Source of the DNA: Antedon mediterranea
Lineage: Eukaryota; Animalia; Echinodermata
Reading direction: 5' to 3'
Assembly (NCBI RefSeq): GCF_964355755.1
Contig: NC_092678.1
Coordinates: 22,771,365 to 22,835,364 of the forward strand
Length of the DNA stretch: 64,000 nt
A model generated the notes under the pieces. It was not told where the DNA came from, did no database searches, and saw only the letters and a list, made by a program, of their open reading frames with translations. How positions within the stretch are numbered: position 1 is the stretch's first letter; each line of letters opens with the position of its first letter. Position numbers and translations under genes: made by a program. Shown here in pieces: positions 30,809-56,100 of the stretch.

Positions 30809-33800
30809 CTATATATTTACAGGTAGATGTACATTGAATCTTTTAACAGAATATACATAAATAAAGAAAATAATACAACAACAAATACAATAATTTATAT
30901 CGAAATAATAAAGAAGAAAGTAGATCAGAGCGAAGAAGAATAAAATGGAACAAAGGGTTATTATAATAGATATAATATAAAAATGCACTGCTTCGTATAA
31001 AGTTATCTTATATCTAAGACTCCGATAAAGTATATATTTGTAAAAATGCCATTCCTCTATGTCTAATATTACCTTATTGTTTGTTCTACTAAAAACTAAG
31101 AATGGAATCATATAATTATTATTAACATTTTTATTATTGTCATTATTTGTCAATATTAAATTGTTTTTTATTATTAATTTATTTCTATAACACTCGTTTA
31201 GAAAGGCATTGACAATATCACCTGATAGTCTACAATCATTCATAGAAAGACGTATTAAGTTTGGAAATGTAATAAATATGTTAGCTAGTGTACTTCCGTT
31301 GATTGATGATAGGTCAATACCATCCAACGTAAGAATACTCCATCTAAATTTGTACTGCCAAGGTGATATTAAAAGATCGTGTAACTGTTTTGCTGATAAA
31401 TGATAATGGTACCATTCCAATCCATTTGCTTTCAAATAATTTGGTACTTTTAATGCATTGATAACTTTTGCTAGTGAATAACTATCAACATTTGAAAGAT
31501 CGTTCGAAATTAAATTGATGAAATTTGGTTTTGATTTTAAATAGTTTGTATCTACTTCCCTCAACATATCAACTATTTGGTTGCTTGATAAATGACACCA
31601 ACTCAAATCAAAATTTTTTAAATCTTTAGAAGTATTTAATATGTGACCTAATAGACTCCCATTGATACAAGGAAGATTTTGACTCGAGAGCAAATATGTT
31701 TTCAACTTGACAAATTGTTTAAGTTTGTATCGTTCTAACATCTCGTTAATACGTTTACACTGACTTTGTGAATATAATCGTAGAGCGACTTTTTCTAGGT
31801 TTGGACAGTTTTCAATTAATTTGAACAAATGTGGACCAGAAAGGTTACTAAAAATATATTCAAAAAACAAAAAATACCGTATTTCCTCATCATAATCGTA
31901 TTTCTGCCATTCGTTAGAAAGAATTTCAAGAGCTTTATCACCCCATTTATAAAGTAATGTTGTTAAACATTTATTATTGACAAAAACGGCATATTCATAT
32001 TTGTCATTGTATCTTAAAAACATTGTCATGTGAGCTACTAGCCTACACACATTTTCAAACGACGCTGTAGTTGAACTTTGAATGATTAATTCCACATTTG
32101 ATATTACTGTATTACTGTCTTTTATAAGTTCATCTGAAAACAATGTCAGAAGTTTGATCCAGTGTAAATTGTCACTAAAAATAAATGTTTTAAAGGAATT
32201 CCGTAAATTCTCAACATGTGGTTTCATTTTAGGAGATATTTGATTGTCCAGTGATGTCGTTACTTTTTCTTCATGCTCTTTACTTACATATTTAAAATAT
32301 TTTGCAAATGAGTAATAATTTGACGCCCTATTCACCAACCAGTGTCTCATTAATTTGTCAGCATGAGGTCCTAGAAAACTGATAGTGAAAACTCTTGTCA
32401 TGTGTAAATACGGGTTTGTTCTTATTTCCTCGCATTCCTCAGAATCTAAACTAACAATTTCATTAGCCAAATAGTAACCAGCTAGAGCTTCTGACAATAA
32501 CTTATATGGCCATCGGTAGGTCTCCTTAAAATTATCCTGAACAATTGGTTCTTCTTTGTAAACAAATCCTAATTCTAACGATAATTTAACTAAAGTTTCA
32601 TTTTTTCCAACATTTTTTAATTCTGTGTCAGTAAAATATAGCAAATTATTCTGTAACCTATTGTAACTAATGTTTCCTAATATCAAAATTGCATTTTTAT
32701 ACTCAATCGGAATGTCTTCAAAGTCTATCACTTTTGTAGTACAGCTATCACCTCTGTTTTTGTATTGATTTAAAAAGGAAAGGAAAATTTCTTTAAACAA
32801 ATTTGAAAAATTATCTGGGCTTACTTGATGGTGTTGCCACATTGTACACACTTTAAGTAATAAAAATGGGGATGAAAATAGTTGTGGAAACATGTATGTG
32901 TGATCAAAATCAACTTTATAGTTTTCAATTAATGACTGACCCAATGTATAATTGTTAATTGATTTGAAATATCTGTTTATATAGTAAAGTATATTTTCTC
33001 CAGTGAATCCCTCCACCTTAACATGAACATCGTAATACTTTTGTAAACTTTCAGTGAAACCTGGGCGCGATGTGAGGACAAGTGTGCTTTCTTCCAATTC
33101 TTCGCGTTTTAATATCATTGGAATATCAACTCCAGAGTTTAACTCATCTAATCCATCTATTAAAATAACTAATTCTTTTTCATGTTCTTCTATAAAAGTT
33201 TTTATAGTAGTTTTATTTATATCAATACCTGTTTTTTTACGAAAGTTCTTTAACTCAACTTTATCAACGATTATATCTGTGATGGTTTGATTTTCCTCGA
33301 TATCTCTGACGTTTACAAGAAATAATATTTTACCAGCAAACGTTGCATCGTTGTCAGTCGCCCAGTTATAAGCTATATATTGAAGTAATGTTGTCTTGCC
33401 AATTCCTCCGTTTCCTGTCATCAATACTTTACATGATTTTGTAGAATTTATAATAGCCAATAGTTCTTGTAATGATGTATATTTTTCTTTTTTCTCTCGT
33501 TTTACAGTAGTGTATAATACTGGATCGGTAAACATCTGTGAAATATCATAAGTTGTAAACCCTTCTCTCCATGTCGGTGGCCTTATGCTTGGGTCTTTGA
33601 ATTTTGTTTTCTGGTCTGCCGTTAAATATTTTTTAATAATCTCATCTGAAATCAATTAGGAATTATTCAATGAACAAAAAAACTACATTTATTGAAAACT
33701 CACATGAAATAAAATAACAGTACAGTCCAAATAAAACCTAAAAGACGTAGGAAGGTAACATTTTAGAATCTGAAACTGGCAAATAGCAGAATCTCTGTGT

Positions 33801-35559
33801 GTTACGCCAGTCATAAAAATATAAGTACTAACCTGTTGATTCATAGAAGTACAAAGTACCTAAGATGACGACAGTGATGGCAATTAATGTCATTGGTAAA
33901 ACTATATATATATAAAAGATTAAACTGTTACTCAATTAAAATAACATAACATAACATGTATATAAATAATACTGTCAAATTATTGAAACATTATTGAAAT
34001 AATGCTTATTTTTTTCGGAACATGAATGTTCCGTATGTTTAGTTGTATGAAAAATGTCTCATGCGTATTTTTTTTAAAGCCACGGCAATTAAAAAAAATA
34101 CCATGGCAACCTTAAAAATGAAACACCACGGCAAATTATAAATGAAACATCACGGCAAAGTATACAAAATGCTATGGCAGAAGTGAGTTACAACGGCGGA
34201 AGTGAAACCCTTGGAATCTTCGATTTTTTCTGAGGCAAGTAATTATTTCCTCGAACAATTGATGTAAATAAATATATGGCTATAATGAGCATAGACTTTT
34301 CCTTAGGGGGCTTAGACGTACGTTCGCAATGACCTTGAAGGCAATCAAAACAGAATACCGAGTAAATGATCAAACAATCATGCTAGTTTCACACCAGAAC
34401 ACACACTAACTTACACCAACAAAATGTTATCTTGCTCTTTAGTCACGTGTGTTTACCTGCGGATCAATACGATCGTTTTGCTCATTGGTAGCATGCATGC
34501 TCCGGAATTTAAGCTTAATTACCTACCTGTAACTATTGATACTACGTGTTCCATTTGTTCCTCTGCATTCTCTTCTGCTTCCTCATTTTGTTCCTCTGCA
34601 TTCGCTTCTGCTTCCCCATTTTGTTCCTCTGCATTCGCTTCTGCTTCCCCATGTTGTTCCTCTGCATTCGCTTCTGGTTCTTCTATTGGTTTAACAAGTT
34701 TAAACTTAACAAAATGTGTAACTACAAATCCCATATGTTAATGGCCCTTTTCCGGTAAAATACAAGCCTACATACAAACTTCAAAGATTGAAATAGTAAA
34801 TCAAATCCCTTTCGAAGTAAATTCATTAATTAAAACATGTCAATTAAGAACAAATTTCTGGAAAATACTAACATTAATGGAAATTATAATAATTGGTAAT
34901 TAACCAATACTTATTAACATACCTCCAATGTATGTTTGAGGTCTAAGTATTCTTAACATCTCAATGAATTTCATTATTTAGAACAAGGATCGTGATATCA
35001 TTATAATGATAACGAGATACATACAGTACATACCAATAAGTAGCATTAGTGTTTCTTTTCCTTTTTGTCTGAGACAGTCCGCAAACTTTTTTATTTTGTC
35101 TGGTTCATCTGCAAGATGTTTGTCAATCTCAAGATGAAGCACTGCATCCCAAATATTTCTGTAGTTATGTTGGTTTATTTCGTAGAAAGCAGTAACACAT
35201 AGCAATTCACCTTGATCATCAACTTGGCTCATGGCTTTATACAGTTGCTTACGATAAGAGGACAACTTTGGTCCATCCAGTGTATTCTGAACCCCATTGT
35301 TATTCATGTACCTTCTAACATGGTCTTTAGCCTTCTTCACTCCAAATAGTTCCGTAATCTCAAATAGTAAGTTAATATTAGTAGGTGTGATGTAAGCTTT
35401 TTCTTCGAGTATATTGAATAAATTGTGTCCGATAAAAGCTGAATTTCTAATATCACCCACATCTAGGTGATCAAACAAGATGCATTTTAACCGAAGGTAA
35501 TTGTTCCCGTTAAAACATGTACTTAGGTTTGCTTTCAAGGTCTTAAAACCTTCTTCCAT
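30809..35559 (-). CDS. NLR-like gene D: DED-like - acidic repeat linker - TM - NACHT - LRR - 2-TM tail (~1195 aa)
   Basis: Exons 35034-35559, 34527-34682 (EANAEEQ repeats; acceptor choice uncertain), 33833-33901 (LPMTLIAITVVILGTLYFY) and 30809-33645. Phase 1 throughout, 3588 nt in frame. Motifs GNGGIGKTT, ILIDGLDE, VLTSRP. Confidence 0.82.
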
Positions 35560-35784
35560 TGTAGAATTTATTTTTTTGTACTATTGGATGAGTGTAAGTA
35601 ATATTTTATACTATCTTATGACAGCAACAACCCATAGAATATTAGATGATCTGTTTCCTTAAATCAAGTTAAAAAACAAAGGGAAAACCAGTTTTACAAA
35701 ATGTCCTCGTTTGTTATCCAAAAATATACAACTTATCATTGACATATGAATGATTTACTTCAGGAAAAGGCTATTTCGTATAAT

Positions 35785-36560
35785 TAGTCGCGTGGAAGCG
35801 ACTCTATAGTTCACTAAGTCGGTCGGTCGGTCTGTCTGTCTGTCTGTCTGTCGGTCTGTCTGTCGGTCTGTCTGTCCGGTATCACTATGCGTTTTATCGC
35901 TTTATGACCTTATCTTGATATCAGTTTAATCTAGCTAAGTCAATTTTTCACAGAATATTCCTTATGGCCAGGAATCGATGTGGTTATGTTTTCACGGTGC
36001 GCAATAAAAAATTACGCGGTCTACGCACGATTTAACGAAATCACGTTTGTAATCATATCTTAACAACCATGAATCACAATTAAATAAAATTTGGTACTCA
36101 TAAATTTCAGGGCATAAATCATCATATGGCAATACAATTACGTGCGTAGCGCATGTAACGCATGCGTACGCGCGCTTAAAATTTTCAAAATTTATTTTCG
36201 ATGAAATAAGAGTACGTTTCAGGCAATTTTAAGCGTTTACAAAATTGCCATGAGTGCGCAGATTTTTGCGCGCGCACTGCGCGTTAAATGTTATTGCGCA
36301 CACTTTTTGCCCGATTTCTGTTTTCTTGACTTAATTTTCAACTCGAAATTACGTTATACGAGCACGTCAAATGTGACAAAAAATATAAATGTTTTTAAAC
36401 ATTTCAACATTTTTAAACATGTTCAGTAATTTCGGTCAGTATAGTTCACTATGTCGGTCGGTCCGTCTGTCTGTCGGTCTGTCTGTCTGTCGGTCTGTTT
36501 GTCTGTCGGTCCGGTATCACTATGCATTGTACCACGCGACTTAATGGCTGTTGGCCTTGT
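35785..36560 (+). mobile_element. Full HINE/DINE-1-like element
   Basis: 5' palindromic subTIR agtcgcgtggaagcgact, two (GTCT/GTCG)n blocks within a duplicated core, 3' inverted cacgcgact plus hairpin. Confidence 0.8.
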
Positions 36561-37053
36561 TATCTACTACAGTTTACTTTTGTCTCAACGTTGTGTTAAT
36601 TGTGGAAGTTTGATCAGTCAGTCATCACATCGAATATATACATTTTTTATCTATAAACGAAGAAGATAGCCCTAAAAATTAGATACACAATTTTCAAACT
36701 GGAATTTCTAAAGAAAATACAAAACAAATGTTGTTATCGAATTCAATGTAGGGTCAGGCCTACAGTGGCTTATGTTGACTAGTCTTGTACTTTCATCGCA
36801 CCATAATCGAATTTAGATCACCTCGACGAAAGTGCGACAAACCAAACCAAAATATTGAATGTGTTTTAAGGCAAGCTAAATCGCCAAAAATATGATCGTA
36901 TAATAAAACAGGAATACTTATATTATAAATTAGAGTACCGTAATTCAATATCAATTTAAAGTATCCAAGTATCCAGGCCTACTAGCACTTTTTTTCAATA
37001 CTGTATAAAGTGTATTTATTGTATTCTTTGCATAGTCCCAAAACAGCATAATT

Positions 37054-40000
37054 CAATACACAGCGGACGTGTTTCAGTCGAGCTCTCTAGGCATGACATT
37101 TCTCTGAACAATATACAGTATAGCCCGGGAATTTTGAACGAGTCCGGCCGACACAGATAGGCACAAAGGCACTCCTTGGGCCTAGTTCAAGTGTCTTTCA
37201 ACCTCGCATTTTTTAAAGCAACTAAAATATTTTTATAGCATGTTGTTTGTATAGCTGTCTGTATATTGATGATATTTTTATATGCTTCTTCATGCTGAAA
37301 TTTTACATGCATTTTTAATCTGAAATTGTGTACGGATTTTAACTGTATTTGTATCGTTGTTTTTTTTTTGTATGATCTGTTTACGGTACCGTATTGACTC
37401 ATTTCATAGCCGGTAAGTTTCTTCTTGATGGATTTTGACTTGGATTAGATTGTTGATTTATCATGGCTACGTTTCGACATACCGGTTTGCCTACTCTATT
37501 AGTGATCCTGCTGGCGGTGATAACAAAATGGAATGCCAGGGATGTCCAGAGAAATTCCAATGTTTTGCGTACAAGGAGTCCGTTTAAGGAATTCTTCACT
37601 AGCCAACATGGAATCACAGCACTTAAATTATGTTCTACGTCATACTTTGAAAAGGTATATCCACGTAAACACGGTCACGGAGGAAAAACTAAAACACGGG
37701 CAATACGACTTGGAGTTTTATTGAGACATTTTGCGTTTATGATTCTTGTTTTAAGTGGAGATATATCGTCTAACCCTGGACCCACAACTTGTGATCCATG
37801 TGGGCTGTGTTCAGGATCTGTGAAATCAAATCAACGAGGTATCTGTTGCGATGGATGTGACTCATGGTACCACATTAAATGTGCGAATATCTCTATTAAA
37901 GAATACAATCGCCTTGCCAAATCTGGCATTGCTACTCATGTATGGTACCTATCTTCAGTGATTCATTATTTGAAGATGATACTATTAATATATCTGATGT
38001 TTCGTACACAGAGTTATTAAATGCCAATTTGGAAAACGAAGATAGGCTGCTCAACGAGTTGGAATGTAAACTTCTTTGTGGTAAGGGTTTGATATTTATT
38101 CACCTTAACGTTAGAAGTCTACGTAACAAAATCGATCAAATTAGAGATATTGCAAAAAATACGAACGCATCAGTCATTGCAATAAGTGAGTCGTGGCTCG
38201 ATGATTCAATCAATGATGCTGAAATAAAAATAGAAAATTTCTCCATAGAAAGGAAAGACAGAAATGGAAAAGGGGGTGGAGTGTGTTTATATATACGCAA
38301 TACTATTTCATACTCAGTCAGAAATGATTTGGACAGAGAGGATATCGAATGCAAATGGATTGATATAATTTTGCCAAAGTCGAAGCCAATTTTAACCGGT
38401 GTATGCTATCGCCCACCAAAACAAGGTACATTTTTTAACTGTTTAGAAAACCTGCTTATGACTGTTGGAAACTTCATTGCTCAAGAAATTATTATTCTTG
38501 GAGACTTTAATGTAAATGTTTTAAATTGTAATCGTAACAACTATGAGTCAGTGACTAACTTCTGTAATATTTTCGGTCTTGAACAACTTATCACTGAACC
38601 AACTAGGATCAGTGATAACAATAGCTCAGCAATAGATTTGATCTTTGCCAGTGATCCTTTAAAAATTAAGGCCAGTGGAGTAATTCCTATTGGACTAAGT
38701 GATCACTTTTTAACGTTTTGTAGACGAAAACGGACTAATATCATTTCTGGCATACACAGAACAATTGATGTTAGATCAATGAAAAATTACAGTTCTGATT
38801 CACTGACTCATATGCTTAATAGTATTGACTGGTCAGATTGTATTAGTTTAACTTGTGTTCAATCTTCATGGGAAACATTTAAAGATAAGTTTCTGCGTAT
38901 AATTGATTCAATTGCTCCTAAAAAAAAGTTAGGGTTAAAGTAAAAGATCAACCATGGTTTGACTCAGAATTAAGAGATCTTATTAGGCAAAGAGACAAAA
39001 TGTTAATTAGATATCGTAGTACAAAGGATGTGATGCATCTCAAAGGTTTTAGAAAACTCCGAAATAGTGTAAATTATAAAATTAAAAAAGCTAAAGTAAA
39101 TTTTTATTCTGAACAACTTCAAGAAAATAAATACAAACCAAAACAATTATGGAAAGTTCTTAAAGGTCTTGGAACCTCTAAATCAAATAATAATGACAAG
39201 AAACAGGTTAGTCTTGAGATCAACAATGAATATGTTCATGATAAGAAAGAAGTTGCTGAAGAGTTTAATTCGTACTTCACCAACGTTGCTGGAGAGCTAG
39301 TAAACAAACTTGACCCTCCTAGTAATACTTATAACTTGGAACATGTCAATGTCTTTTACAGTAGCAAAGGTGTCTTTCCTAATGATTTTTCTTTCATAGA
39401 ATTATCTGAAGATAATGTTCTTAAAGCTTTGACCAAATTATCGACGAGTAAAGCTACCGGAATAGATACTTTACCAGCCAAATTCTTCAAAGATGGGGCT
39501 TCTGCAATAGCAAAACCATTAACTCATATTATTAAGTTGTCCTTCACATCCGGTATTGTACCCAAAGAATGGAAATTAGCGAGAGTCATCCCAATTCACA
39601 AAAAGGGTAGTAAAACGGTGGTAGGTAACTATCGTCCGGTGTCTATACTCTCGGCTTTTTCTAAAGTTGTTGAAAGACTAGTACATGACCAATTGATGGA
39701 ATACCTTAATTCACTTATCTATGATTTCCAATGTGGGTTCCGAGCAAATTTTTCGACAGATCTTTGTTTAATTCACCTAACTGACCATATTAAAAAGAAT
39801 TGGGATAAAGGTAATTTAACAGGTATGATAGTCTTAGACCTACAAAAGGCTTTCGATACTGTAGACCATCAGATTTTACTAGGCAAAATGAGAGCATTAG
39901 GATTGTCCCAAACAGTAATAGGTTGGTTTAAATCATATTTAACAGATAGATGGCAGGTAGTTGATAATTGTGGTACTCTTTCAACGTGGAAAAAAATAAC

Positions 40001-41138
40001 ATGTGGGGTCCCTCAGGGGTCAATATTGGGCCCACTGTTGTTCTTAATGTATGTGAATGATATGGAATCTGCATTGAGTAGTAAACTGCTCCTTTATGCC
40101 GATGATTCTGCTATAGTTGTATCTAATAAAAGTGTCGCCAATATACAAAATGTATTGTCAAAAGAATTAAAATCTATTAATTCTTGGTTATTAGATAATA
40201 GATTGTCATTGCATCTAGGCAAAACGTATTCAATTCTATTTGGATCTAAACGTAAACTCAGAAATCAACAAGAATTGAAAGTTACATGCAATGATTATAT
40301 AATCACAAACAAACCTACAGTAAGTTATCTAGGACTTGAACTCGATAACAATCTAACTGGAGATTATATAGGTAAATCAGTTATAAAGAAAGTAAACTCA
40401 AGGGTAAAATTTTTATATAGAAATAGAAAGTACTTAACTTTCAGAGATCTTAAGTTACTAGCAAATAGTTTGGTGTTATGCCTTTATGATTATGCTTGTA
40501 GCGTGTGGTACTCTGGATTAAAAAAAACATTAAAAGTTAAATTGCAAACTGCACAAAATAAGACGGTCAGATGTATTCTTGGTCTTGAACCAAGGGATCA
40601 CATTGGGGCTAATGAATTAAACAAACTGAATTGGCTCCCAGTAGACTTAAGAGTTAAACAGATAAAACTTTGTCACATGTATCGTATTATTAATGGATTA
40701 AGCCCTACGTTTATGAATGATGGTATTAGTAGAGCAAATGTAATTCACCAGTACAAAAATACTAGATTTGCAACTCAATCAATTTATAGACCATATATAG
40801 GTAACCACTCCCAAACAACCTTTGTTAACACGGCAATAACGTCATGGAATCACCTGCCAAAATTGATACAGTGTTCAGAAACCATCAATCAATTCAAAAG
40901 AAATATCAGGAAACATCTCAAAGAGGTTATGCTTGAAAGATTATAATTTATATTTATATTGTTGCTACATGTGTTATTGTTTATTGTAAATGTTTATTCT
41001 TATGGTGTTTTTATCCTTAAGGGCCACAATGGAAATAAGTTTGACCTTTGGTTACTTTTTTGTGTTACCCTGAATTCATTCTTTGTATTTTTTATGTTGT
41101 GTTATTTTATGAATTCGAATAAAGAAATGAAATGAAAT
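37054..41138 (+). mobile_element. Near full-length CR1/L2-group LINE: 2A-like motif, PHD finger, APE endonuclease, reverse transcriptase
   Basis: SGDISSNPGP then CGLC...CCDGCDSWYHIKC (PHD). HLNVRSL, ISESWL, GDFN and SDH (APE). DLQKAFD, GVPQGSILGP and YADD (RT). Frameshifts near 37925 and in the A-run near 38925. 3' tail aataaa(gaaat)n. Confidence 0.92.
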
Positions 41139-41523
41139 ATTATTACTCCTACTAACTATTATTACTACTCCTACTATTATTACTATTACTGTCCGTCTAA
41201 TACAAAATGTGTATATTAATTGAAAGTTTAACAAAATAATGCTCACGGTGTGTTATTCCGTCTGCCTATCCAGGCCTACTAGCACTTTTTTTCAATACTG
41301 TATAAAGTGTATTTATTGTATTCTATGCATAGTCCCAAAACAGCATCATTTAATTATTGAATTATTACTCTACTATTATTATTACTCCTACTATTATTAT
41401 TACTCTACTATTATTATTACTCTACTATTATTATTACTCCTACTATTATTATTACTCTACTATTATTATTACTCTACTATTATTATTACTCCTACTATTA
41501 TTATTACTATTTATTATTATTAT
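41139..41523. repeat. (tat/tac)n microsatellites within a short tandem duplication
   Basis: Two ATT/ACT-rich arrays, each followed by the same atacaaaatgtgtatattaattgaaag sequence. Confidence 0.8.
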
Positions 41524-42559
41524 CAGTCTGATACAAAATGTGTATATTAATTGAAAGTTTTAAAAAAAAATGCTGACGGTGTGTTATGTCGTCTGCTTGC
41601 TAAAAAGATAGGGCGTACTTCGTTATATAACAGTCCACCATTCGTCTTTCGTCATTTTGTGTAATGTCATTCCGTCATATATTATGTAGTAGGCAAACTC
41701 AGTCGCAAAATGGCTTATGAATTGAAAAATAAACCCATATTTTAACAGAAATGCAGATTATATAGGCATATTCTAATTATTTATATACTCTACTACTTAC
41801 TTATTTCTTCCAATTTCCAATGAACAATGACAGTAGTCTTTATTGCATTCTGTGTTTAGTAACAAATATACACTTTTCACAGTATTTGCTCTGCATTGCG
41901 TATTATCGTAGAGTAAACAACAATGATCGTCACAATGTGGACTTTACTCTCAACAATAGAGAGACTCTGTCCCTCATTTATCAATTCACATGATATGAAA
42001 AATAAACACCATCACTTTAATCAATCCCTTTGTACTTGTCTGAGGTGGTACATTCCAGTTCTATTATATCTAACTATAGAAAACTTACTCCAACAAAAGC
42101 AAATTTATTTTCGGTGCTAAACCTATTGGTACATCTAACAAGATTCTTGAAATGTTTTCGTCGACAGTAAACTTTTTTAATCACTCACAGTTTTCAATGT
42201 TAATAGACCTATAATGTAATTAAGACGTTATACCAAGATGAATGTCTGTTCATTATAACATAGTATGACATTTTGCAACAGTACCTCTAAACTGTAGAAT
42301 TTGCAATGTTTATTAGTAGGCCTAGTTTTAAAATATGCCAAATTTAATTTCCAGGTTGACCTATCGATTTTAAAACCAATAAAAAAAAAGGTAACGAAGC
42401 ATAATTACAATGCATATTTTATTTAATCAAAGGCATTGGTTAAACATAACTTGAAATACTTGGCCATAAAACAAATAAATAGTACAAACCAAGTGATGTT
42501 TTTCGGTAATACAGTAATATATATTAAAAGACCACAATTTCAGATAAAGGTTAATTTCA

Positions 42560-42762
42560 TATTTTATTCCATTCTTTTTTCATCTGAAAACAATTAAAGT
42601 TAAAACTATTGCCACTAATGTATTTAAGACAACTACCTAAAATGTACGTAAATGTACCTTCATTTCTGGAGGGATACACTTTTTCGTGTTCTTTTACAAT
42701 TTAAGATATTTGAGAATGAATAATAATGATGTGATGCCCTAATTACCAACCAGTGTTTCATG
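42560..42762 (-). pseudogene. Decayed NACHT-LRR exon fragment fused to a DED exon
   Basis: An alternative frame reads MKHWLVIRASHHYYSFS and nearby PPEMKVH, matching MKHWLVNRASNYYSF...SPEMKIH of the paralogous NACHT exons. Confidence 0.7.
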
Positions 42763-45700
42763 AATTTTCTTGATTTTGCATGGTTCATTAGCTAGTACTT
42801 CAATTTCTAATTTAAAAACGACATTCCAAATATTTTGTAAGTTATGATGTTTTAGGTTGTAGTAAGAAACCAAACGTTTTAATGCATCTGGATGAACTTG
42901 TCTCATGGCTTTAAACAGTCGCTTCCGATCATCTGACAACATTGTATCATCATCAATATATTGAAGTCTGTTGTCCTTCATATACTGTCTTATAAGATCT
43001 TCGGCAGGCTTCACTTCTGTTAGCTTCGTAATCTCTAATAGCAGACTTACATTAGTAGGTGTGATTAAGCCTTTTAATTCAAGTGCATTAAACAAGTCAT
43101 TTCCAATAGCATCTGTAGTATCACTAACACTTAAATAGTCAATTAGACAGAATCTTAACCAATAATATCTTTCACCCTCATAATATCTACTGAGATCAGC
43201 ATTCATGGTTTTAAACTTTATTTTAGATTCTGTAATTTTACTGTATTTTATTGTGTCTGCAAAAAAACAACAAATTGTATACATTAATTAATTCTTAATT
43301 CTACATTAATTCTTCTATTTCTGGTTAAAGGTCTTGATCGTATTAAACGGCATACACAAACAGGAGAAATAATATACAAAAATAATAACAGTACTGAGAT
43401 CAGCGTTAATTGTTTGAAACGAACTGAGTTGATGCATACATTACGTCACAAATGTCCGTATTGCGTCAACTAGTATGGCTCACTGACACTCGACGCAGCT
43501 CTCTCATGTCGTAGGCCTACTGTGTCGTAGGCTTAAACTTAACATTTTTTGTGTCTATCGCGCTAAAATTGAGGTTTTATTGTTGGAAATGCTATTAGAA
43601 GTCTATAAATATCATATTTCGTTAAATTAACACTTTGAATTGACAGGTCTTGGTAGGTCTTGGTAGGTCTTGGTATTTAGGAAAACCCGTTTGAACGGTT
43701 TGGGATTTGTCAATGAATTGTGCTGTGTCTAAATTACATTACATACGGTATACAAATTATTAGTCGCGTGCAACGCGACTCCACAGCTCACTATGTCGGT
43801 CGGTTAGTCGGTTGGTCGGTCGGTAAACACTAACTTGAGCACGCGACTGCAGCCATGTATATGCCATAGCCATAGGGATTTAGTTCCCATTTGCGTTACC
43901 TGCGACTAACTTTGTGGTTGTTTTGTTGTTGGCAATAAACAATAAGAATTAATGTGAAAATTAATAGTTACCTACCATAATCACTTTCCGTTAATTTGCG
44001 ATCCAAAACAAAACATGAGAATATGTTAGGAATAGCTATTACGATTGCAATGACCAGTGCTAAAACTATTAAGGAAAAAACAAACATTTATCAAAGTTAA
44101 TTGTGAAGTTTCACTCCAAAATTGTAGATTAAAGTACAATAAAAAAAGAACAAATTAGTAATTCATAATTATGATTAATTCACAGTATGAATTGCTTTTT
44201 ATGATTGATAGTGAATTTATCGAAAATAATTATAAGTTTTTATGATCAACACTTACCTGTACATATGGCTATAGGCTTCTTACATGATGAAGATATCCAG
44301 TTATGTTTAACTTGTTCTAAATTTAAATTAACAAAATAAAATTCTAAAATAAGTTAAAATATTAATATAAATTTTAAATCATAGTAAGCAACCAAATTCC
44401 AAATTTATTCCATAGCTAATTCTTCTTCATTAAATTATGATTAATTAGATTTTGATATTTTTGTAATTACTTTCACACGGTCATTATTATTATGTATCAG
44501 TTAGGAAATGTATTCTTAACTTCCTCAGCTACCCACAGGTGATGATTGTTCTTTGTAATTCAATACAATAAAATACTTACTATTATTACGCGTTCCTTTG
44601 CCTATAAGAATAAAATTAAATATCAAATATGTATTATGATTAAAACTGATCTAAATAATTCAGTTGATTTTTGATGAACATTAATCAGGTTTGATCTATT
44701 GATAGAGTTGCATCAATTTTATAATATATCTCCAATATATATAAACATATCTCCAAAAAAGTTGGAGATTTTTCATTAAATTTAGATAACAAAGCTAAAA
44801 TTTAAGGCCCTATTTCAGGATTACAGAGCATGCATGGTTTAAGTTCATTTGATGATTACTTCTTCTTCTTTTTTTATTAGTTATTAGAAAAGAAAAAATA
44901 AATTAAAAGAGGCTTTTGAATACATTGCATAACATAGGTCAATGTTACATACACATTTACGATATTCTTTATGCTTACCGAAACGTGTAGGCCTAATTGG
45001 TTTACATTTATATTTCCGGTTACCTGTAGGATAGAAATAAAAATACAATATGTAACAAAATTCAAACCAAAATAATGTCATTAACCCATGACGTCATTTA
45101 CCAAAGAACGTCATTTATCCATAACCAATAATATCATTTTAGTCTCTGTTGTGACACTATAGATCATTCTCTATGACTGTTTTTTTTTTTCAAACATGAT
45201 GGAGCGGTTATGATTTATTTTGTAATGGTTTGCGCCACCTACAGGTCAATATCATCATTACATTATATGATAATGAATGGTGTACGAGTAGCTCACGTTG
45301 TTTTGTGTTTCATACATCTATCTTACAGTATTTGTAGTTACATAATATTTGAATGTTCAATCACAGAAAATGGAGTCTCATCAAGCCCTTTTCCCTCTCT
45401 TGCACCCGTGCACCCCAATGTTTAGTATTCACTAGATTTGTTAATGATGTTACTAGATAGGCTAAGCTCCATACCTGTAGAACAATATTGTATTGTTTTC
45501 TAAAACAAATGTAATGAGTAAATAAAAAAGAAGCTCTTTATCGAGATTGGTAGACATACCTAGTAGAATATGATGTGCCACATTGTTTAGTAGTTTTGCA
45601 AATATTTCAATTTGTTGTTGTGAATCTAAGTTTCCGGCTTTCTCAATGTGATATACAGCATCCCAAATGTTGTCGTAGTTGAAGGCACTCAGTTGATAGA

Positions 45701-46070
45701 AATCAATCACATTCCTTAAGTCATCTTTGTCTACGTTAGTAAGCGCTGTAAACAGTGCTCTGCGGTAGTTAGTTATTATTGTCTCTGATGTGTTATTACT
45801 GCATTGAACAGTATTCTTGTATTCTGTTATACAATTTATCGCTGATTTCTGATTAGTTACTTCAGCAATGTCCAACAACAGCCTCACATCAGTTTTTGAG
45901 ATAAATCGGTTACGAGTAAGTGTATTAAATAGGCCCATGGCTAATTGATCTAGATATCCAATAGGTATAACACCATATAGAAGCATTCTTAACTTCCGAA
46001 CTTCAGTGCCAGCATAGAGTTTGCTAAGTTTTTCCAGAAACATGCGGTATTTAAGAACATTTTCGTTCAT
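42739..46070 (-). CDS. Chimeric locus E: DED-like - basic linker - TM - second DED-like module, no NACHT (~414 aa; may be a pseudogene)
   Basis: Exons 45560-46070 (close paralog of the gene A first coding exon), 44979-45023, 44581-44601, 44257-44316, 43976-44065 (VLALVIAIVIAIPNIFSCFVL) and 42739-43256 (paralog of the gene D DED exon). GT-AG, phase 1, 1245 nt in frame. Confidence 0.6.
43761..43871 (+). mobile_element. Minimal HINE-related element
   Basis: tagtcgcgtgcaacgcgact hairpin, cactatgtcggtcgg core and cacgcgact subTIR are shared with the larger HINE family. Confidence 0.6.
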
Positions 46071-47189
46071 TTTTAATCTGAAAACAAAAATCTATTACTA
46101 GTAAAAAACTCACAATATTAACACAATTTGGAACAATTTTTATAAATTTTAGCCAGCTAAGGACTGGAAAAATCGTTCAAACGTAAGCAATTAATGTGTA
46201 GGCCTAACTTTCTAACTATGCATAGTCCCAAATGTTCAACACACCCTGACCTGAAGAATCTTTAGTTTAAACTACATTAGGCCTACTAAATCAATATCAA
46301 CATTACAGTTACTACCAACAATATCACTGACCTATTTCAATGTATTGGAAATAACAGCCTTATAAATTAAAATTAGATTTTCTTCAACAGTATTTCTTTC
46401 TTTTTTTGATCATCTCCATTTTTTCTGATTGAAGTTTGATCAGATGCCTCGTAAACTGATCGAAACGTTTAGTGCAAGAACTATATAATACTATATGTAC
46501 TGATTTATACTTTACCAGTTGTTGTTTCTTTCTGATGAACAGTAACGGTAGGCGTATTCAAAATCGACAAGACAAGTTCCAAAATGGTTGCTGTACACTG
46601 AACCGTAACATCTCAGGGTTGACTTTATCGTTTTTTCATTTTAATATCTACTTGTTTTTTTGTCTAGTGTAGGCCTATGTCTACTGTTAAATCCAATTCA
46701 GAAGAGTTTGCAACAAAACTGATTAATTGAACCTGAACCTGTGTAAATCCTATTTTAATGCACTTGTGCTAAATAAATTGCCTATGAATATACTGTCGAC
46801 AACAAGTATTTGGAAGTATTATATGTAGAGTATTGTATATTATTCAGTAATTATTCTATTTCACTGAAGCGCGTCTACATGGGTCGTAGTCTATGAGTGG
46901 ACGTTAACGTGCCAGTGATCTTACTGCGTAACCTCTAGTATTCCATCGCTGGGTCGGTGGACGGGCTTATTAGGTCAGGCTAAGTTTGTAGCTTGGCTTA
47001 GCCTAGATCCTTAATTTTCTGAACAAATGTTGTCGTCCTAGTGATAAAACTCAGGCCAAAACCTGTAGTATTTTGTATATGTAGTATATTCTTGTGAGCT
47101 TTATTCAATCAATTATATTATTATTTTTAGTCATAATAATGTGTAGTATTATACTGGCAATTAAAAAAAAATTATATTTGTAGCTATAT

Positions 47190-50131
47190 TCTATGCGACC
47201 GAGAAGGTAAGACGTACACATACGGAGCTCCGCCACAAATATTTTATACTTTGCCAACACCAATTACGCCTGGTCATTCTTTTGGATTTCATAAAGTAGT
47301 AAGTTATCTTACCTTTAATCACATCATTAACAGTATTTAATCATTAAAATGAGTACTAGAAAGAGTAAAAAATCGGCCGATCCAACGCCTACAACCGACT
47401 CAATTGAAACTGCCGCTACTACAAATGACGCGTCAGCACAAATAAATGCCCTTCGTAGTGAGCTCCAGAAATTTGCAGCTGATATTAACTCAAAAATTGA
47501 CAATGGAATTAAATCAATTAAAGATAATCAACAGGTATTGATCAGCAGAATGGAAGAAATAGAAAATAAACAATCTGTTATGGAAAAATCACTGGAATTT
47601 GTTTCGAAAAATACAACTGAAATAAAAACGGAAGTGACTGGACTGGAGGCTAGCGTCACTTTAATTGAAGCGGAACTGAAAGAAAAGGGTGACAGAATCA
47701 GCGTTTTGGAAAAGGAATTACTCAAAATGGAAAGATACAGTAGGAGTTTCAATCTAAGATTCGGAGGCATCCCAGAAAAGGAAGGAGAAAATCCGATAGA
47801 TGAAATATCAAATTTAATAGGTAATGAACTTGACTTAGCAGGCGTTACCATTGAAAACGCACACAGAACGGGTAGGCCTAAAACCGGATCGCAAACAACA
47901 GTCCCCAGACACATAATAGCGAAATTTCTATACAGACCGCAAAGGTTCTCTATCCTATCAAAGGCTAAAAAAATTAAGAAAAAAAGCTTTTATGTCATGG
48001 AAGACCTACCCCTATCTGATGTGAAAAAAAAAACATCAACTAAAGGATGTAATGTCGAAGGCATATCTAGCAGGCAAGCACCCGTCTTTTCGTAACGGCA
48101 CATTGTACATAGATGGAATGCCTTATCGTGAATAGTCCTAATGACGCAATCAGAATGTAATTTGAATAGCTATTCAAGTATTTATCGCACATTGACACGT
48201 AGGCCTATTTTATATAATCGTATATTCTACCTTTAGAAGGCCTAGTAGACGTGTGCATTGCGTTTTTTATGTACATATACGAGAACCATTATGTTATGTT
48301 GGACCATCATGGACCTGATTATTTGGCGGAGCAAAGAAGCAAAGAAATTGACTATTTATTTATAATACTTACTTTGTAATGAACTTGCATATATGTATTC
48401 ATAGGAGGTGGCGATGATAGAGTTACACCATACGTTATTAAATTGATTTCTCCATTCATTATTAATCACCTTACGTTCTGTATTAATTCATCTTTTTCTT
48501 CAGGTAGTTTTCCCAATTATTTAAAGTTAGCAAAAGTTATTCCAATTTTCAAGAAAGGTAGACAAGATATACTTTCAAATTACAGACCCATTTCACTACT
48601 TAGTACCTTTTCCAAAATCATTGAAAAATTAATGTACTCCCGTCTCTATGAGTTCCTGGATTGCAATAACGTACTCTTTGCTCATCAATATGGTTTTCGT
48701 AAATCTCATTCCACTTCACATGCAATCCTTGATCTCATAAATAATGTAACAAACTCCTTTGAAAAAAGACAATTTTTGTTATCTGTCTTTGTTGACTTAT
48801 CCAAGGCCTTCGATATTATAGATCACCGTATACTTATTAATAAACTTAACAATTATGGAATCAGGGGTATTACCTTAAACTGGTTTCGTAGTTACTTAAG
48901 TATGAGGAAGCAATATGTCTCGTTTGGTAATTGTATATCACCAGAGGAGGAGATGACATGTGGGGTGCCACAAGGGTCGGTTCTTGGCCCTCTCCTTTTT
49001 TTAATTTACGTAAATGACTTATCCAGAGTCAGTGACACCCTCCATGTCATCTCCTTTGCTGATGACACTACACTATTTTTTTATCATTCAGATTTAAAAG
49101 TTTTATTTTCTATAGTTAATAATGAATTGTCAAAATATAATGACTGGTTCATCTCAAATAAACTCCTTATAAACTCCATGAAAACCAATTACATTCTTTT
49201 TCATACACAACGTCAATCGTTAGACCTTACTGATTACAATATATTTATTAATGGAGATAACATTAAACAAACGTCAGAGACTATGTTCCTTGGTGTTTTA
49301 ATCCAGGAAAACTTGAGATGGACCAGTCATCAGAATCATATTGCAAATAAAATTTCTAAAACAATTGGGATTATAAATAATCTTAAGCACACTTTTCCCC
49401 GGCGTATCCTTCTTTCATTATATAATACTTTAATTTTACCTCATCTTTATTATTGTAACATTATTTGGGCTGCAGACTATCCATCACATCTCGATAAACT
49501 TAATAAGCTGATTAAGCGTGCTATTAGAAATATTACTTTTACGTCTCGCATTACTCCATCTGAACCTTTATTTTATGAACTTAAGTTACTGAAGTTAGGT
49601 GATATACATAAATTGCAAAGTGCCTCTTTTGTCTTTCAATATTTTTCTAACAATCTTCCTTCTCCCATGATGAATTTATTTAACACTGCTGATTTCAACC
49701 ATGGTCATAATTTAAGAAGTACTGTTCATAAGTTTCAGTTAACTATTCCTTTTGTAAGATTAACTAGTTCTTCCCACTTTATTTATGTTTCTGGCCCTTT
49801 AATTTGGAATCAATTAGATACCAGTATTGTTAACTCTTCCTCTCTCCCAACTTTTCGTAAAAAACTTAAAAGTAATTTGTTATCATTGTACTCAAACTAG
49901 ACCTTCAAACTGTTTTTGTCATGAGTTTTTTATTTTATTTAATAATTACATACAAATGTATTTTTTTCTTTGGTTTATAGGTCTTGCGTGACAAGTATTC
50001 TCTTCTTGCAAGATCCTCTATTAATGGTATTTTTTTGTATTTTCTCATTATAAATTATCATTCTTTTTTTATTGTATTGTTTTACCATTGATAGAAACTA
50101 ATAAATGTTGAATTATTATTATTATTATTAT
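47190..50131 (+). mobile_element. CR1/L2-group LINE with coiled-coil/RRM ORF1 and an RT lacking the endonuclease region
   Basis: ORF1 47349-48135 (coiled coil, NLRFGGIPE, AHRTG, PRHIIAKF; A-run frameshift near 48030). RT 48443-49900 (DLSKAFD, GVPQGSVLGP, FADD). (tta)n tail. Empty site visible near 9950-9965. Confidence 0.9.
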
Positions 50132-50529
50132 ATAACAATAACACGTGAAGTAAAATATTTTAAAGAGACAATAAATTATAATCTTAAATAAGAGTTTAAA
50201 TGTTTAAAAAAAAATAACATTTTAAAATATAAGACCAGAATAGTTTATTTATTTAGATAAAATCGAGAATGGTAAATATTTTGTTCATGATACGTTGAGA
50301 TTTTAGGTACAGTATTAAAATATTTGCTAATACATTTTTTTTTTAATAGACCGATTTCTCTTTATTTTTCTTCTGAGTTATCAAGGCTATTCTATTACAC
50401 AAGTTTTTCGGTGTTAACATAAAGTATTTATTATAATTATTAAAATTAACTCTTTATTTAAAATTACCAATTAAAATCGGTAAGTCACAGTTTGTAAATA
50501 TAATTAATGTACTTTACTACATTCTCAGA

Positions 50530-50818
50530 AAATCATCGCGAGACCATTCTCCGCCAATCATCGCGAGACCATTCTTCTCCACCAATCATCGCGAGACCAT
50601 TCTCCGCCAATCATCGCGAGACCATTCTCCGCCAATCATCGCGAGACCATTCTCCGCCAATCATCGCGAGACCATTATTCTCCGCCAATCATCGCGAGAC
50701 CATTCTTCTCCGCCAATCATCGCGAGACCATTCTTCTCCGCCAATCATCGCGAGACCATTCTCCGCCAATCATCGCGAGACCATTCTCCGCCAATCATCG
50801 CGAGACCATTCTCCGCCA
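50530..50818. repeat. 25-bp minisatellite, paralog of 10340-10571
   Basis: About 11 tandem units with occasional 3-bp insertions. Confidence 0.9.
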
Positions 50819-53122
50819 TGATTAGTGGTAAACTTTTGCAGAGCTATGACGTCATACATCCACTCGTCAAATAGCGAACGCGCCAAATACCACTTCGTGA
50901 ACATGCCAGTCGCAGCGCATAGCATGGAATATCATAAAAATGACGTCGTAGTGTAGCAGTCGTCACAGTGGACGTGCAAAAAAAAATTTCATGAGGAACG
51001 TTGAAAAGACAATAAAAAGAAGTATACAATTACTATCCGTATCGTATGTTTATCTAACACAAGTATGACATTTTTGTGAATATTTCTTAAATAAAATTGT
51101 TTGTTAAAACCATGTTTGTTTGTATGTGATCACAACAATTAAGAATGTGTATTTATAATGTGGGTTCAAGAGAGGACATTTTTCTGATTAAAAAAAGATA
51201 TCCTTGTTAATATGAGACTCACTACAACAATGACTACAATATAATTACATTCAAATCACTAAATGGGAGAAAATCTTATTTTAGTGTGACTTTTAATTTT
51301 ATTTTGAAATTTATTTCAAAACATTATTACCCTTAAATTTTCAACTTTACTGAACATTTTAGCAGTATTGCAAAAAACCTGTTATTTACAACAACTGTGA
51401 ACTACTCCACCCTATAATGTATATGTATTTACTATTTATTTATCTCAATTTATTCAATAACACTAAACTGTTCTTTCCATCAAATGTAGTCACTTGATGA
51501 CATTATTTTGCTGTATATTAATTACAGAATTAATTATAGAATCTTCATTTCAAGCTCTAGTTATATCATCTCATTAACAGAATAAATAGTTGAAAATAAA
51601 AATTTGATATTTTGTTGCTTAGTTTTCTGTACACATTATGCTTGGAATGAATCATTAAATTTGTTTTATGCATTTCAATTAACTGGTACTGGTTCAGGTA
51701 ACCGTCTACAAGATACATTCTGGTAGCTATTGACATAAAGTTGTTGATTGAATTTCTTCTTATAAACTAGTATCGCAGATTTTCATTTACAAAACTACAT
51801 TTGAGGTTATACAGACGTTTAATATAATGCCTATATGCCTTTACTTCGCCTCATCACAGATATTTCCCAATTTTGAAGTGTTTATTTTCAGAAGAATACG
51901 ACACATGTCAGTTTGTGTTGAGAATAAACGATTTTATTTTCCAAATTGTACAAGTTCTGATTAATTATGAAAATTTAAAAAAATATCTGAAATATACTGT
52001 CACCGTTTACATTTAAGAATTTAATTTGGGAAAACGTTGAATGCGGTAAAGCAACACAATGTATGTCAAAATAGTTTTGTCGTCTAAAGTGAATGTGCTG
52101 CCACCTATATTGTTGTGTTCACGCTTGAGTAAGCTCATTTGCATTCTTTCTTCACCAGATGTATTTTATGTTTATGGCGTTCCAGCCCACGTGTCTGAAA
52201 TGTGTTTACTATTGCTACGTTGTGCGGAAGTTGTTTAAAGAAATCTAGGCCGAACATTTGTCATGCCAGGACTCAAGGAGTGACTACGGGGTAAGCTTGC
52301 ATTAACTTATATTCCTTTTAATGTAGAATTATTAGGCCTAGCCACATTTTATTTATTACAGTACAATACAGTTAGCTTTAATGATACGCGTACGAGTAAA
52401 GTACAGTAGGGTCTGTCAATACTGTACGCATTCTTATAGTGTTCTTCCTTGTAGTCGGTAATGCGTGTAACATGAATATTCATATCACTACCTTATTGAA
52501 TATGCATGATTTCCGCATTTGCATACATACGGGAAAACATTGCGTAATGGACAGATATAAAGACCATTGACCAAGTTTAATAACAATAAACACAATTGTA
52601 CAATAAATCGAATCAAATTTAATTTAATCAAGTTATATTATACCCACAAAAAGAGAAAATACACACTCATAAAACGAATTTATAATTTAAAACGATTATA
52701 AAAACTAATAAAATGTATCCTCCGTTTATATAATCGATATTATAAATTAAAATATAAAAATATTGAGGCCCGATAACGATCGACGATAAATAGATAAATA
52801 TAGATTTGTCTTACATAAAACAAAATAGATTCAAAAGTTATCCTATACTTCTAGGATAAACAATAGGCCAATATCAATAATAATAAATAACAATAGTACT
52901 TTTACATACCCTGTATTTAAAATAGATACAAAACAACAACAATTAGTAATGAACAACAGTAAGATTGTCTCCTGATACTTTACTTTAAAAAATACCATAA
53001 ATAATAGATAGGATCATTGAATATCCATCGATATTCAAGGTAGTATTTAAACGGAGTAAGCGACATTTTGATTCAATATACGAAACGCAAATACCGTAAT
53101 ATGTTATTTGAATAAATCTAGC

Positions 53123-56100
53123 TTAATTAGTTATGACTAAAGGTACAAAACATAAGAAAATATAATGGTTAAAATTAATAATAGAAAAAGTGAAATATAT
53201 CCTCATAAGAATAGAAGAATATAAGAAGATGTAGCTATAATTATTAAATATATTAAAACTAACTTTATACAAAATATTTAAAAGACGAAATAAATGCGCT
53301 TTAAATATAGTTTTACATTTAGTTTCTATATACCAACTGTAATAGTTCAACTCTTCTATTTCTAATGTTTTGTGATTTTCTTCAATTACTAAAACAAATG
53401 TTGGGATTAATGATGTACTGTAAATATTCGTAATGTCATTTCCATTGACAGATATCAGGTCACTTTTGATCATTATATGATTTTTATAACATTCACTTAG
53501 CATTTCATTTACAATAGTACCTGTTAAATTACAATTATACATAGAAAGATGTGTTAAGTTTGGAAATATAATCAATATAATAGCTAGTGTACTTCCGTTG
53601 ATTGATGATAGGTCAATGCCATCCAAAATAAGATTATTCCATCTAAATCTATAACGAGTAGGTGATATTAAAAGATCGTGTAATTGTTTCGCTGACATAT
53701 AATACCTGTCCCAAGTATCATACAGTTTGTATAATGTCTAATTTTTTCTTTACTTCGGTATCAATATATGAAAGATCAATTCCTTCTAAATTGATAAAAA
53801 TGTCTGATGATGTTAGATAGTTTATATCTAGTTCATTAAACATGTCACCTATTTGTTTGCTTGATAATTGAGAATTCGCCACAATGAAAGTTTCTAAATC
53901 TTTGGAAGTGTTTAATATACGACCTAATAGAGATCCATTGATAAACTCCGGATATTTGGTCTGAGACTAAAACTCTTCAATTTAACAAAAGCTTTACTAT
54001 GTTCACATCCTTCTAACATTGTGTTAATATGTGAACCACTTATATTATATTCCATATAACGTATGTGGAGCTCTTTTAAATTTGGAAAGTTTTGAATTAA
54101 TTTGCAAATCTGTGAGTCAATTGTAGTGTTATATTCGAAGGAATCAATAGTCCACCAAAAATTATGTACTTCCTCACCAAAACGATATTTTTTCCATTCG
54201 TCTGAGAGGATTTTAAGAGCTTTATCACCCCATTTATGAAGTAATTGTATCATACACCTACTGTTTCGACTTTGATCCAGATATCGTAAAAAGATTTCAA
54301 TGTGTGCTACTAACCTACCTACTTTACCAGATGACTCAATGTTTGATTCTTCTATGATTGATAATATAGTTTTAAATATTACCCGCTTGTTTGTAAAATC
54401 TGCAAACAATTTTATTTGTTGGAATAAGTGCAAATCTTTTTCATATAGCAACTTAAAAGAATTTTTAAAATTGTCAACATGCATTTTCATTTCTGATGAC
54501 ATATGTTTATCCAATGACTTCACTACATTTTGTTCGTGCTCTTGATTTACATATTTAAAATATTTTGAAAGCGAGTAATAATTTGAGGCCCTGTTTACCA
54601 ACCAGTGTCTCATCAATTTGTCTGCATCGAGACCTAGAAAACTAATGGTGAAAACTCTTACCATATGTAAATACGCGTTCGTCCTAAATTTCTCACATTC
54701 CTCAGAATCCAAAGTATCAATTTTGGTAAACAAGTAAAACCCGGCTAATGCTTCTGACAATAACGTGTGTTGATATCGATAGGTGTCCACATAATTATCC
54801 TGTACGATAGGATCTTCTTTGTAAACAAACCCAAAGTTTAGCAATAAGTCTACTAAAGTTTTATTTTTTGTAAGCTTATTTAATTCTGTTTCAGGAAAAG
54901 ATACTAAATTATTCTGTAAACTATTGTAACTAATGTTTCCTAATATTAGAATTGCATTTTTATACTCACTCGGAATTTTGTCGAAGTCTGTTACTGCGTT
55001 TGTAGTATCAGATCTGCCGCTGTATTGATTTATAAAGAAACGAAATATTTCTTTAAACAAATTTTGAAAATTATCTAGGTTTAGTTCTTTGTGTTGCCAC
55101 ATACTACACACTTTAAGCAACAAAAATGGTGATGAAAATAGTTCTAATATATATTTGTCATCACCACCCCAAAGATCTCTAGAATCAGAATCAAGTTTAA
55201 ACTTCTCAATTAATTTCTGACCCAGTTCTGGCTTTTCAATAGATTGGAAATATCTGTTAATATAGGGCTTTATGTTTTCTACATCGAATCCTTCCACTTT
55301 TACATGTACGCCATAATATTTATGTAAATGTTCAGTAAATCCCGGTCGTGAAGAAAGAATAACTGTACTGTTTTCCAATTCTTCTCTTTTTAATATCATT
55401 GGAATATCTACCCCAGATGTTAACTCATCTAATCCATCTATCAGAATAACTAATTCTTTGTCGTGATCTTCTATAAACGTTTTTATAATTGTTTGATTGA
55501 TATGGAGACCTATTCTACGAAAATGTATTAGTTTAACTTTATTAACTATTGTATCTGTGATAGTTTGACCTGGTTTGATGTCTCTGAGGTTTATGAAAAA
55601 TAATATTTTACCAGCAAACGTCATGTCAGAATTTTTCGCCCAGTTATAAGATATATATTGAAGTAATGTTGTCTTACCAATTCCCCCATTTCCAGTAATC
55701 AATACCTTACATGATTCTCTGGACTTTATAATACCCAGTAATTCTTGTACAGATGTGTTCTTTTCTTTATTCTCTACAGTAGTGTATAGTACTGGATAGG
55801 TAAACATCTGGGAAATATTATAAGTTTCAAAATGTGTTCTCCATATCGGTGGCCTTATCATTTCGTTCTTTAACGTTTCTTTCTGTTGTGCTGTTAAAAA
55901 TTTTCGAATAGTCTTATCTGAAAACACACAAAAAGAGAATATTATCTGTTGAAACACATATTAAATCTGAACGTGGAAAATAGTGAGCTTTATTGAAATC
56001 ATAGTTACAAATACATACCTTCATCACTTTCTGTTAATTGTGTATCCGAAACTTGGCTTAAGAAACTGTTGAGTACGATGCCAATGATGATGATCAGCAG

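Follow-up and report, generated by a model that had tools for sequence, protein, structure and literature searches.

A candidate NACHT-less membrane protein with tandem death effector domains on both sides of a transmembrane helix in an NLR gene cluster of the crinoid Antedon mediterranea

The subject of this study is a window of 64,000 nucleotides (nt) from the crinoid Antedon mediterranea (NCBI RefSeq assembly GCF_964355755.1, contig NC_092678.1, positions 22,771,365 to 22,835,364 of the forward strand) and, within it, a minus-strand gene that we call gene X. It lies among five genes for receptors of the nucleotide-binding and leucine-rich repeat type (NLRs; genes A to E) and combines two tandem death effector domains (death effector domain, DED; tandem DED, tDED; the two copies, tDED1 and tDED2) with a single predicted transmembrane (TM) helix between them. 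We consider it very probable that the gene X lineage is real and coding, and that the window copy is spliced as modelled is a claim we make with fair confidence. Our preferred reading, for which we see roughly even chances, is that gene X is a maintained NACHT-less type II membrane protein that exists in at least three copies and serves the TM-NLRs of this cluster as decoy or co-adaptor.

Gene X comprises six exons (Table 1), the last of which spans 43256-42739, and encodes 414 amino acids (aa) without an internal stop, just as a preliminary description made from the DNA letters had anticipated with a six-exon open frame of about 414 aa; all five introns are GT..AG introns in phase 1. The acceptor ttttgcag of the last exon terminates at 43257, where it had been placed before, the splice sites resemble those of the paralogs, and an acceptor AG at 46079-46078 leaves 7 nt of 5′ untranslated region (UTR) ahead of the ATG; a non-coding exon further upstream was not located. 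Over the TM donor (43919-44083) and over this last acceptor (43153-43381), contigs of what is likely the source sample do not differ from the window, so the sites are not assembly errors; such identity is an assembly check and not independent support, and no listed piece spans the intron between TM exon and tDED2, which measures 719 nt compared to 101-264 nt for the TM-to-NACHT intron of the five NLR paralogs. With regard to the hallmarks of NLRs, gene X has an N-terminal death fold, while a NACHT domain with Walker A and B motifs is absent apart from a frameshifted relic of ~120 nt. Between genes D and E (34000 to 52300), no other NACHT DNA was found, which bears out the earlier view of a NACHT-less paralog. 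C-terminal leucine-rich repeats (LRRs) are absent too, since the frame stops at 42739, and the related protein P0001 (see below) has no Pfam LRR; a Pfam scan of P0001 also did not find Peptidase_C14 (caspase or pseudo-caspase).

The case for a genuine gene lineage is made by copies outside the window. When longer proteins were searched with tDED2, 338 candidates yielded 2 matches. The better one was P0001 of A. mediterranea (a single 445-aa sequence under XP_071960776.1 and XP_071960777.1), which RefSeq labels “uncharacterized protein”. Two accessions for one protein are often transcript-backed variants, and could also be two gene copies. P0001 shares its 26,055,566-nt contig with the closest NLR relatives and has the same chain of tDED, linker, TM helix, and tDED as gene X, followed by the same tail of out-of-frame NACHT DNA; exon by exon, the two are 66, 40, 29, 70, 70, and 88% identical at the amino acid level, and P0001 keeps a linker exon that gene X has lost. 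Its Pfam DED matches exceed the cut-off over two stretches (44.2 bits). Since the first methionine of the P0001 tDED2 exon comes only at residue 97, the frame of this protein needs an upstream splice. A further protein, P0026 (188 aa), starts in TM-exon-like sequence, has a tDED2 78% identical to that of gene X, and ends in the same tail; tblastn alignments of both P0001 and P0026 to the window start at 43257, the acceptor. The same chain and scar in P0001 together with the run from TM-like sequence into tDED2 and the same scar in P0026 speak against a chance join. Of the 2 options left standing by the preliminary description, a chance in-frame join of two deleted genes is strongly weakened, and the other, that exon shuffling gave rise to a novel adaptor or decoy anchored in the membrane, is supported.

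A family profile search gave 130 matches, and P0001 alone among the 146 proteins collected has the order tDED-TM-tDED; exact look-up of single-exon readings in the protein collection found 0 of 6, and none of 58 pattern matches from a metagenome scan was confirmed. The top matches in the ESM Atlas scored 0.82 and serve as leads only. At the DNA level, the scar at 42767 is spanned by contigs from a further two studies (X5 record 9; X6 records 16 and 17; X7 records 23 and 24; X6 and X7 represent a second organism, and X5 is only guessed to be RNA), and the source sample itself contains both X-type and P0001-type tDED2. One X5 contig departs from the window at 45557, adjoining the donor of exon 1, with 217 unlike letters. 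At 88% likeness, X5 gave no cover of 43192-43365; at 80%, one contig over 43143-43255 ends at the exon edge where DNA contigs run on, and we did not count it because it comes from one study only.

What had been described as single DEDs on either side of the membrane are tandem ones. An AlphaFold model of tDED2 with its tail (predicted local distance difference test, pLDDT, 91; predicted template modelling score, pTM, 0.85) has ten helices, and the NACHT-derived tail is modelled as a helix (160-169, pLDDT 55-76) at the position of the last helix of D-type DEDs. All 24 Foldseek matches of tDED2 among those listed are tDEDs of caspase-8, cFLIP, or vFLIP (template modelling scores up to 0.65, best E 6e-3), and the family profile matches the caspase-8 tDED at E 4e-7 over the full tDED. 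The fold of tDED2 is thus predicted to be that of a caspase-8/cFLIP-type tDED. Each “DED exon” being a tandem DED, the protein has four DEDs and not two, and the placement of death folds on both sides of the TM helix stands. The P0001 model has a pair of tDEDs along with a disordered linker and, with low confidence, one continuous helix at 224-249.

Gene X is the product of deletion or replacement events, and its parts resemble three paralog lineages as had been suggested. Similarity to gene A amounts to 89-91% over 45484-47162 and 74% over 44791-45482, with none beyond, so that its end was correctly noticed before and only shifts from ~44810 to 44791; tDED1 resembles the gene A tDED at 83-91% (protein and DNA level), the TM exon is B/E-like (78-81% nt identity over short stretches), and the tDED2 exon is D-like (69% nt identity). 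Two scars had been missed previously. Homology to D-type DEDs stops at 42767, and the DNA beyond is 75-78% identical to mid-NACHT-exon sequence in 5/5 paralogs. The frame thus closes with 29 nt (42767-42739) that derive from a NACHT exon and are read out of frame. Intron 1, in turn, is without the equivalent of 8092-7441 in gene A (i.e., the two linker exons of gene A), leaving a donor at 45474. In trees, the tDED2 of gene X, P0001, and P0026 forms one clade (support 100/99), whereas tDED1 of gene X is sister to the tDED of gene A (100/100) and not to tDED1 of P0001 (approximately unbiased test p 6e-5, for a grouping named after the first tree was seen). The conserved unit therefore consists of microexon 3, the TM exon, and tDED2, and the 5′ half of the window copy with its N-terminal tDED was, judging from these sequences, likely swapped in from gene A later than the fusion. 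The DED exons of genes X and A (46070-45561 versus 8675-8166) differ by 9.0% without gaps, compared to 4.6% and 8 gap events over ~800 nt upstream, which reflects either coding change faster than non-coding change or a conversion border. A relic of microexon 3 (75% nt identity, donor lost) lies in an intron of gene A at 7603-7694, in an order that differs from gene X.

A plausible origin would start from a family assembled from phase-1 cassettes, namely tDED, linkers, TM, and outer module. A D-lineage tDED exon would have come to lie behind a TM exon at the usual position of NACHT, either by a deletion between tandem NLRs or by replacement of the 5′ part of one gene’s NACHT exon, and the breakpoint would have joined it to mid-NACHT DNA whose out-of-frame reading may supply helix and stop. 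Comparable shuffling is frequent in the family: P0005 reads tDED-tDED-TM-NACHT, and P0020 has four tDEDs ahead of a P-loop.

The sole hydrophobic stretch of the protein (aa 207-233) is the only one above a Kyte-Doolittle (KD) value of 1.5 (KD19 maximum 2.79), and an N-terminal stretch that could qualify as signal peptide is lacking. The 40 residues before it contain 12 K/R and no D/E, and the 15 residues after it 3 K/R and 4 D/E. This asymmetry recurs: K/R are richer on the N-side in 12/12 family TMs (hand-picked, with tail anchors, multi-pass proteins, and doubtful matches excluded), and the parent NLRs A to E likewise have a single TM with a basic N-side that separates tDED from NACHT. Behind the same kind of TM, relatives without a second TM carry a mucin-like stalk and MAM (P0039, P0052), two EGFs and then NACHT (P0008), or an FN3-like module, below cut-off, and then NACHT (P0006, P0007). 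Outer-type modules in this position together with the basic N-side make a type II orientation likely, and, given that the gene is real, these sequence features make us reasonably confident that tDED1 would be cytosolic and tDED2 outer or luminal.

Placed in this way, the outer tDED2 would cluster the protein through DED-DED contacts, and the cytosolic tDED1 would enter DED assemblies of the paralog NLRs with FADD or caspase-8 and dampen or cap them. Short cFLIP acts as a decoy in such a manner. With the NACHT switch absent, capping or dampening appears the most likely outcome; by analogy, we moderately favour a decoy over an activator and find it likely that the product tunes neighbouring immune receptors rather than senses microbes.

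A number of observations weigh against this reading, and several of them are shared with the view that dead pieces came together in frame by chance in gene X, or that its lineage, though genuine in other places, is decaying in the window copy. Every cassette being in phase 1 makes such joins easy, frameshifts occur in the NACHT-LRR exons of three of the five NLR neighbours as judged from the window letters alone (A near ~4000, C at 27123-26719, E near ~53924), and the DED2/NACHT scar and the intron 1 deletion look pseudogene-like and, taken alone, favoured a dead join. The 43976-to-43256 joint was not seen among the joints listed from contigs, and contigs only, of six runs; the stray donor at 45474, if used, would truncate the product to 179 or 199 aa; a TM exon joined to the NACHT acceptor of gene D (33645) would stay in frame for 1187 aa; and P0001 is a RefSeq gene model taken as annotated. 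The single-exon Pfam DED match (aa 8-86, E 2.7e-4) scores under the cut-off, and none of the Foldseek matches listed reaches E 0.001. Substitution tests are weak: the 27 listed DED2 variants comprise 8 synonymous and 19 non-synonymous changes and no stop (ratio 0.66, p 0.22), and tDED1 versus gene A gives 0.49; for the DED2 variants, dN/dS is not significantly below 1. Rough NACHT ratios for A versus E and D versus B were left out of account. A dead or decaying join nevertheless has to contend with three intact copies that are 12-22% divergent and share junction and tail, with linker, TM, and 5′ end of the last exon conserved in frame. No stop or frameshift interrupts the coding chain of gene X, P0001, or P0026, and the exon indels seen are in frame. 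In record 17/24 (X6/X7), all 10 indels fall 3′ of the stop and 8 of these 10 are not multiples of 3, while coding indels measure 3, 6, and 12 nt (Fisher p 0.035; chance of 0/10 within the record’s 92 coding nt, 0.053; the counts draw on 12 listed indel rows out of 34, and 4 gap letters in records 21 and 28 are unplaced). Neutral simulation left the frame open in 132/600 runs at 12% divergence and 33/600 at 22% without indels, or in 10/600 and 0/600, respectively, with 0.1 indel per substitution, a contrast that overstates the case because P0001 and P0026 were taken from protein databases and are intact by selection. On balance, we regard a dead or decaying join as quite improbable.

Other points against our preferred reading concern the membrane and the role. 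Walker A and B motifs of the parents are intact, and sequons were not enriched in any of the four valid DED/NACHT comparisons (a gene A NACHT comparison made in the wrong frame was discarded), which fits a cytosolic NACHT and hence a re-entrant, non-spanning helix. The helix might then be re-entrant or an organelle anchor, with all four DEDs cytosolic on a membrane-tethered scaffold, where textbooks place DEDs, and a Pro-Asn break within the helix of gene X, P0001, and P0026 points the same way; set against a single 27-residue helix, strong charge asymmetry, and disulfide-type EGF and MAM modules behind the TM in relatives, this remains doubtful in our view. The dampening role, proposed by analogy, also counts among these points. 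An activating type II receptor, whose outer tDED2 would cluster on contact with material that bears DEDs (filaments set free, or its own kind on a different cell) while tDED1 recruits FADD or caspase-8, would have the same anatomy as a decoy, would suit the tDED-TM cassette that occurs with other outer modules (including kinase-tDED-TM-MAM), and could explain why conservation is highest in tDED2 (88%, as against 66% in tDED1). Its ligand is hypothetical, however, and the low conservation of tDED1 is accounted for by the exchange with gene A, so that this contrast does not show ligand binding; we see such a receptor as a minority possibility. A through-membrane relay, in which the outer tDED senses DED assemblies from dying cells or neighbours and signals to the cytosolic tDED, is a similarly tentative and rather unlikely idea; it would have arisen by exon shuffling among crinoid type II NLRs whose NACHT-LRR is likewise outward, and frameshifted NACHT DNA would have been recruited as a structural helix. 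The decoy or co-adaptor remains the reading that we prefer.

Other ways of reading the locus were set aside: splicing from a GT at 42746 on to gene D would be in frame (1380 aa), yet P0001 and P0026 continue to the stop; tDED2 as a stand-alone first exon was rejected as P0001 has no methionine there, though gene X and P0026 do carry early ones; and weak Pfam matches, for example to Cpf1_PI-like and Hemolysin_N, were rejected as under cut-off.

Table 1. Features of gene X and its immediate surroundings (window coordinates).
Feature	Position	Strand	Remarks
Upstream region common to gene A	46071..47162	-	89-91% to 8092-9925; 4.6% divergence over 46885-46071
Exon 1, tandem DED of the gene A type (tDED1, 170 aa), predicted to be cytosolic	45560..46070	-	Pfam DED E 2.7e-4, under curated cut-off; 66% aa identity to N-half of P0001
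25-nt pseudo-exon from intron 1 deletion, ancestral donor at 45474	45475..45499	-	
Microexon 1, 45 nt, basic linker	44979..45023	-	6/15 aa identical to P0001
Microexon 2, 21 nt, basic linker, lowest conservation	44581..44601	-	2/7 aa identical to P0001
Microexon 3, 60 nt, encodes basic juxtamembrane residues and the first part of the hydrophobic helix	44257..44316	-	14/20 aa identical to P0001
TM exon, 90 nt, B/E-lineage type	43976..44065	-	19/27 aa identical to P0001
Phase-1 intron, 719 nt, dispersed repeats inside	43257..43975	-	
Last exon, tDED2 part: D-lineage tandem DED without ancestral last helix, predicted non-cytosolic	42768..43256	-	149/170 aa identical to P0001
Out-of-frame NACHT-exon DNA: final ~9 residues and stop; modelled helix replaces the lost one	42739..42767	-	
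Remaining NACHT relic, now likely 3′ UTR	42650..42738	-	Matches residue ~430 onward of gene D NACHT exon
First AATAAA past the stop, candidate poly(A) signal	42563..42568	-	

The NLR genes around gene X, all on the minus strand (A near 4000-8700, B at 14650-20970, C at 24800-29200, D at 30800-35600, and E at 52900-56900), are composed of tandem-DED, linker, TM, and long NACHT-LRR exons, with LINE and other repeats interspersed. All named close relatives of the window genes are crinoid (A. mediterranea and Anneissia japonica), and for the NACHT of gene D, the best matches from A. mediterranea reach only 52-57% identity. C-terminal hydrophobic helices are present in genes B and D and sit in a different frame in gene A. 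The DED exon of gene B (20387-20947) matches the second, internal tDED of P0005 at 62%, and tblastn upstream of it as far as gene C did not find a further tDED exon; for gene E, no DED exon was found within the window (56900-64000 examined), and a 12-nt tandem repeat with an Ala-Pro-Ala-Gln frame upstream of its TM exon (56538-56879) is a likely linker exon. Gene X is flanked on the plus strand by apparent LINE-type elements, named from translations and not from a family scan, at 37457-40946 and 47331-49900 (endonuclease/reverse transcriptase frames, and an ORF1-like frame with a reverse transcriptase frame), and 63012-63282 resembles its intron stretch 45186-45448 at 91%. A recent segmental duplication links 476-4043 and 11279-14908 (99.4% and 94.7%), the 3′ flanks of genes A and B, and takes in part of a LINE.

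Further afield, the tDED appears as a very mobile cassette, fused to RING/B-box-NHL, URGCP-like GTPase, LRR-Roc-COR-Death, and ZU5-UPA modules in P0021, P0035, P0047, P0059, and P0066, and it forms receptor-like proteins of the kinase-tDED-TM-mucin-MAM and tDED-TM-mucin-MAM types (P0032, P0039, P0052). The crinoid TM-NLR family as a whole may carry NACHT-LRR outside the cell, possibly a larger finding than gene X itself.

Among known systems, gene X stands closest to the crinoid tDED-TM-NACHT(-LRR-TM) NLRs (A to E; P0005, P0006, P0007, P0018), which share its phase-1 cassettes and are the source of its every part; they carry NACHT and LRR where gene X has a second tDED. The predicted tandem fold is that of short cFLIP, viral FLIP, and the caspase-8 prodomain, but these are soluble with one tDED, whereas gene X has two tDEDs parted by a membrane helix, no catalytic domain, and 12-18% identity in structural alignments. 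Pyrin- and CARD-only proteins are likewise NACHT-less death-fold regulators of NLR complexes, yet small, soluble, single-fold, and mammalian. Outside crinoids, PMC13133943 describes the sea cucumber proteins AjNLRC4 and AjNLR-new as TM-NLRs, the latter with an outer NACHT according to TMHMM and cell-binding assays, which counts in favour of the type II topology; these have Ig instead of DED and retain NACHT, unlike gene X with its tDEDs and no NACHT. Cnidarian TM-NLRs also exist, and death folds occur in deuterostome NLRs, as PMC3879445 indicates. The definition of the tDED and a precedent for a decoy with a death fold outside the cell come from PMC11874512, the precedent being secreted DcR3, a TNFR-family protein with a death domain-type fold and no cytosolic partner domain.

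In the literature searched, which took in few subscription journals, neither DED-TM NLRs of crinoids nor a TM flanked by DEDs on either side turned up, although NLR domain tables in genome-paper supplements could list this architecture, and no paper paired Antedon mediterranea with the death effector domain. Besides DcR3, secreted osteoprotegerin of the TNFR family is a second precedent for an extracellular death fold in a decoy. The tDED-TM-tDED architecture is thus apparently undescribed, though present unlabelled in RefSeq, and seems to be a variant of NLR-derived death-fold regulators.

DEDs are treated as cytosolic. If the gene X protein is real, either a DED lies outside the cell or the helices of crinoid NLRs do not span the membrane, and the topology of this one protein therefore bears on the whole crinoid TM-NLR family. 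The locus itself clearly illustrates the making of a new immune gene out of phase-1 cassettes plus a deletion scar, in which DNA read out of frame was recruited in place of a lost helix.

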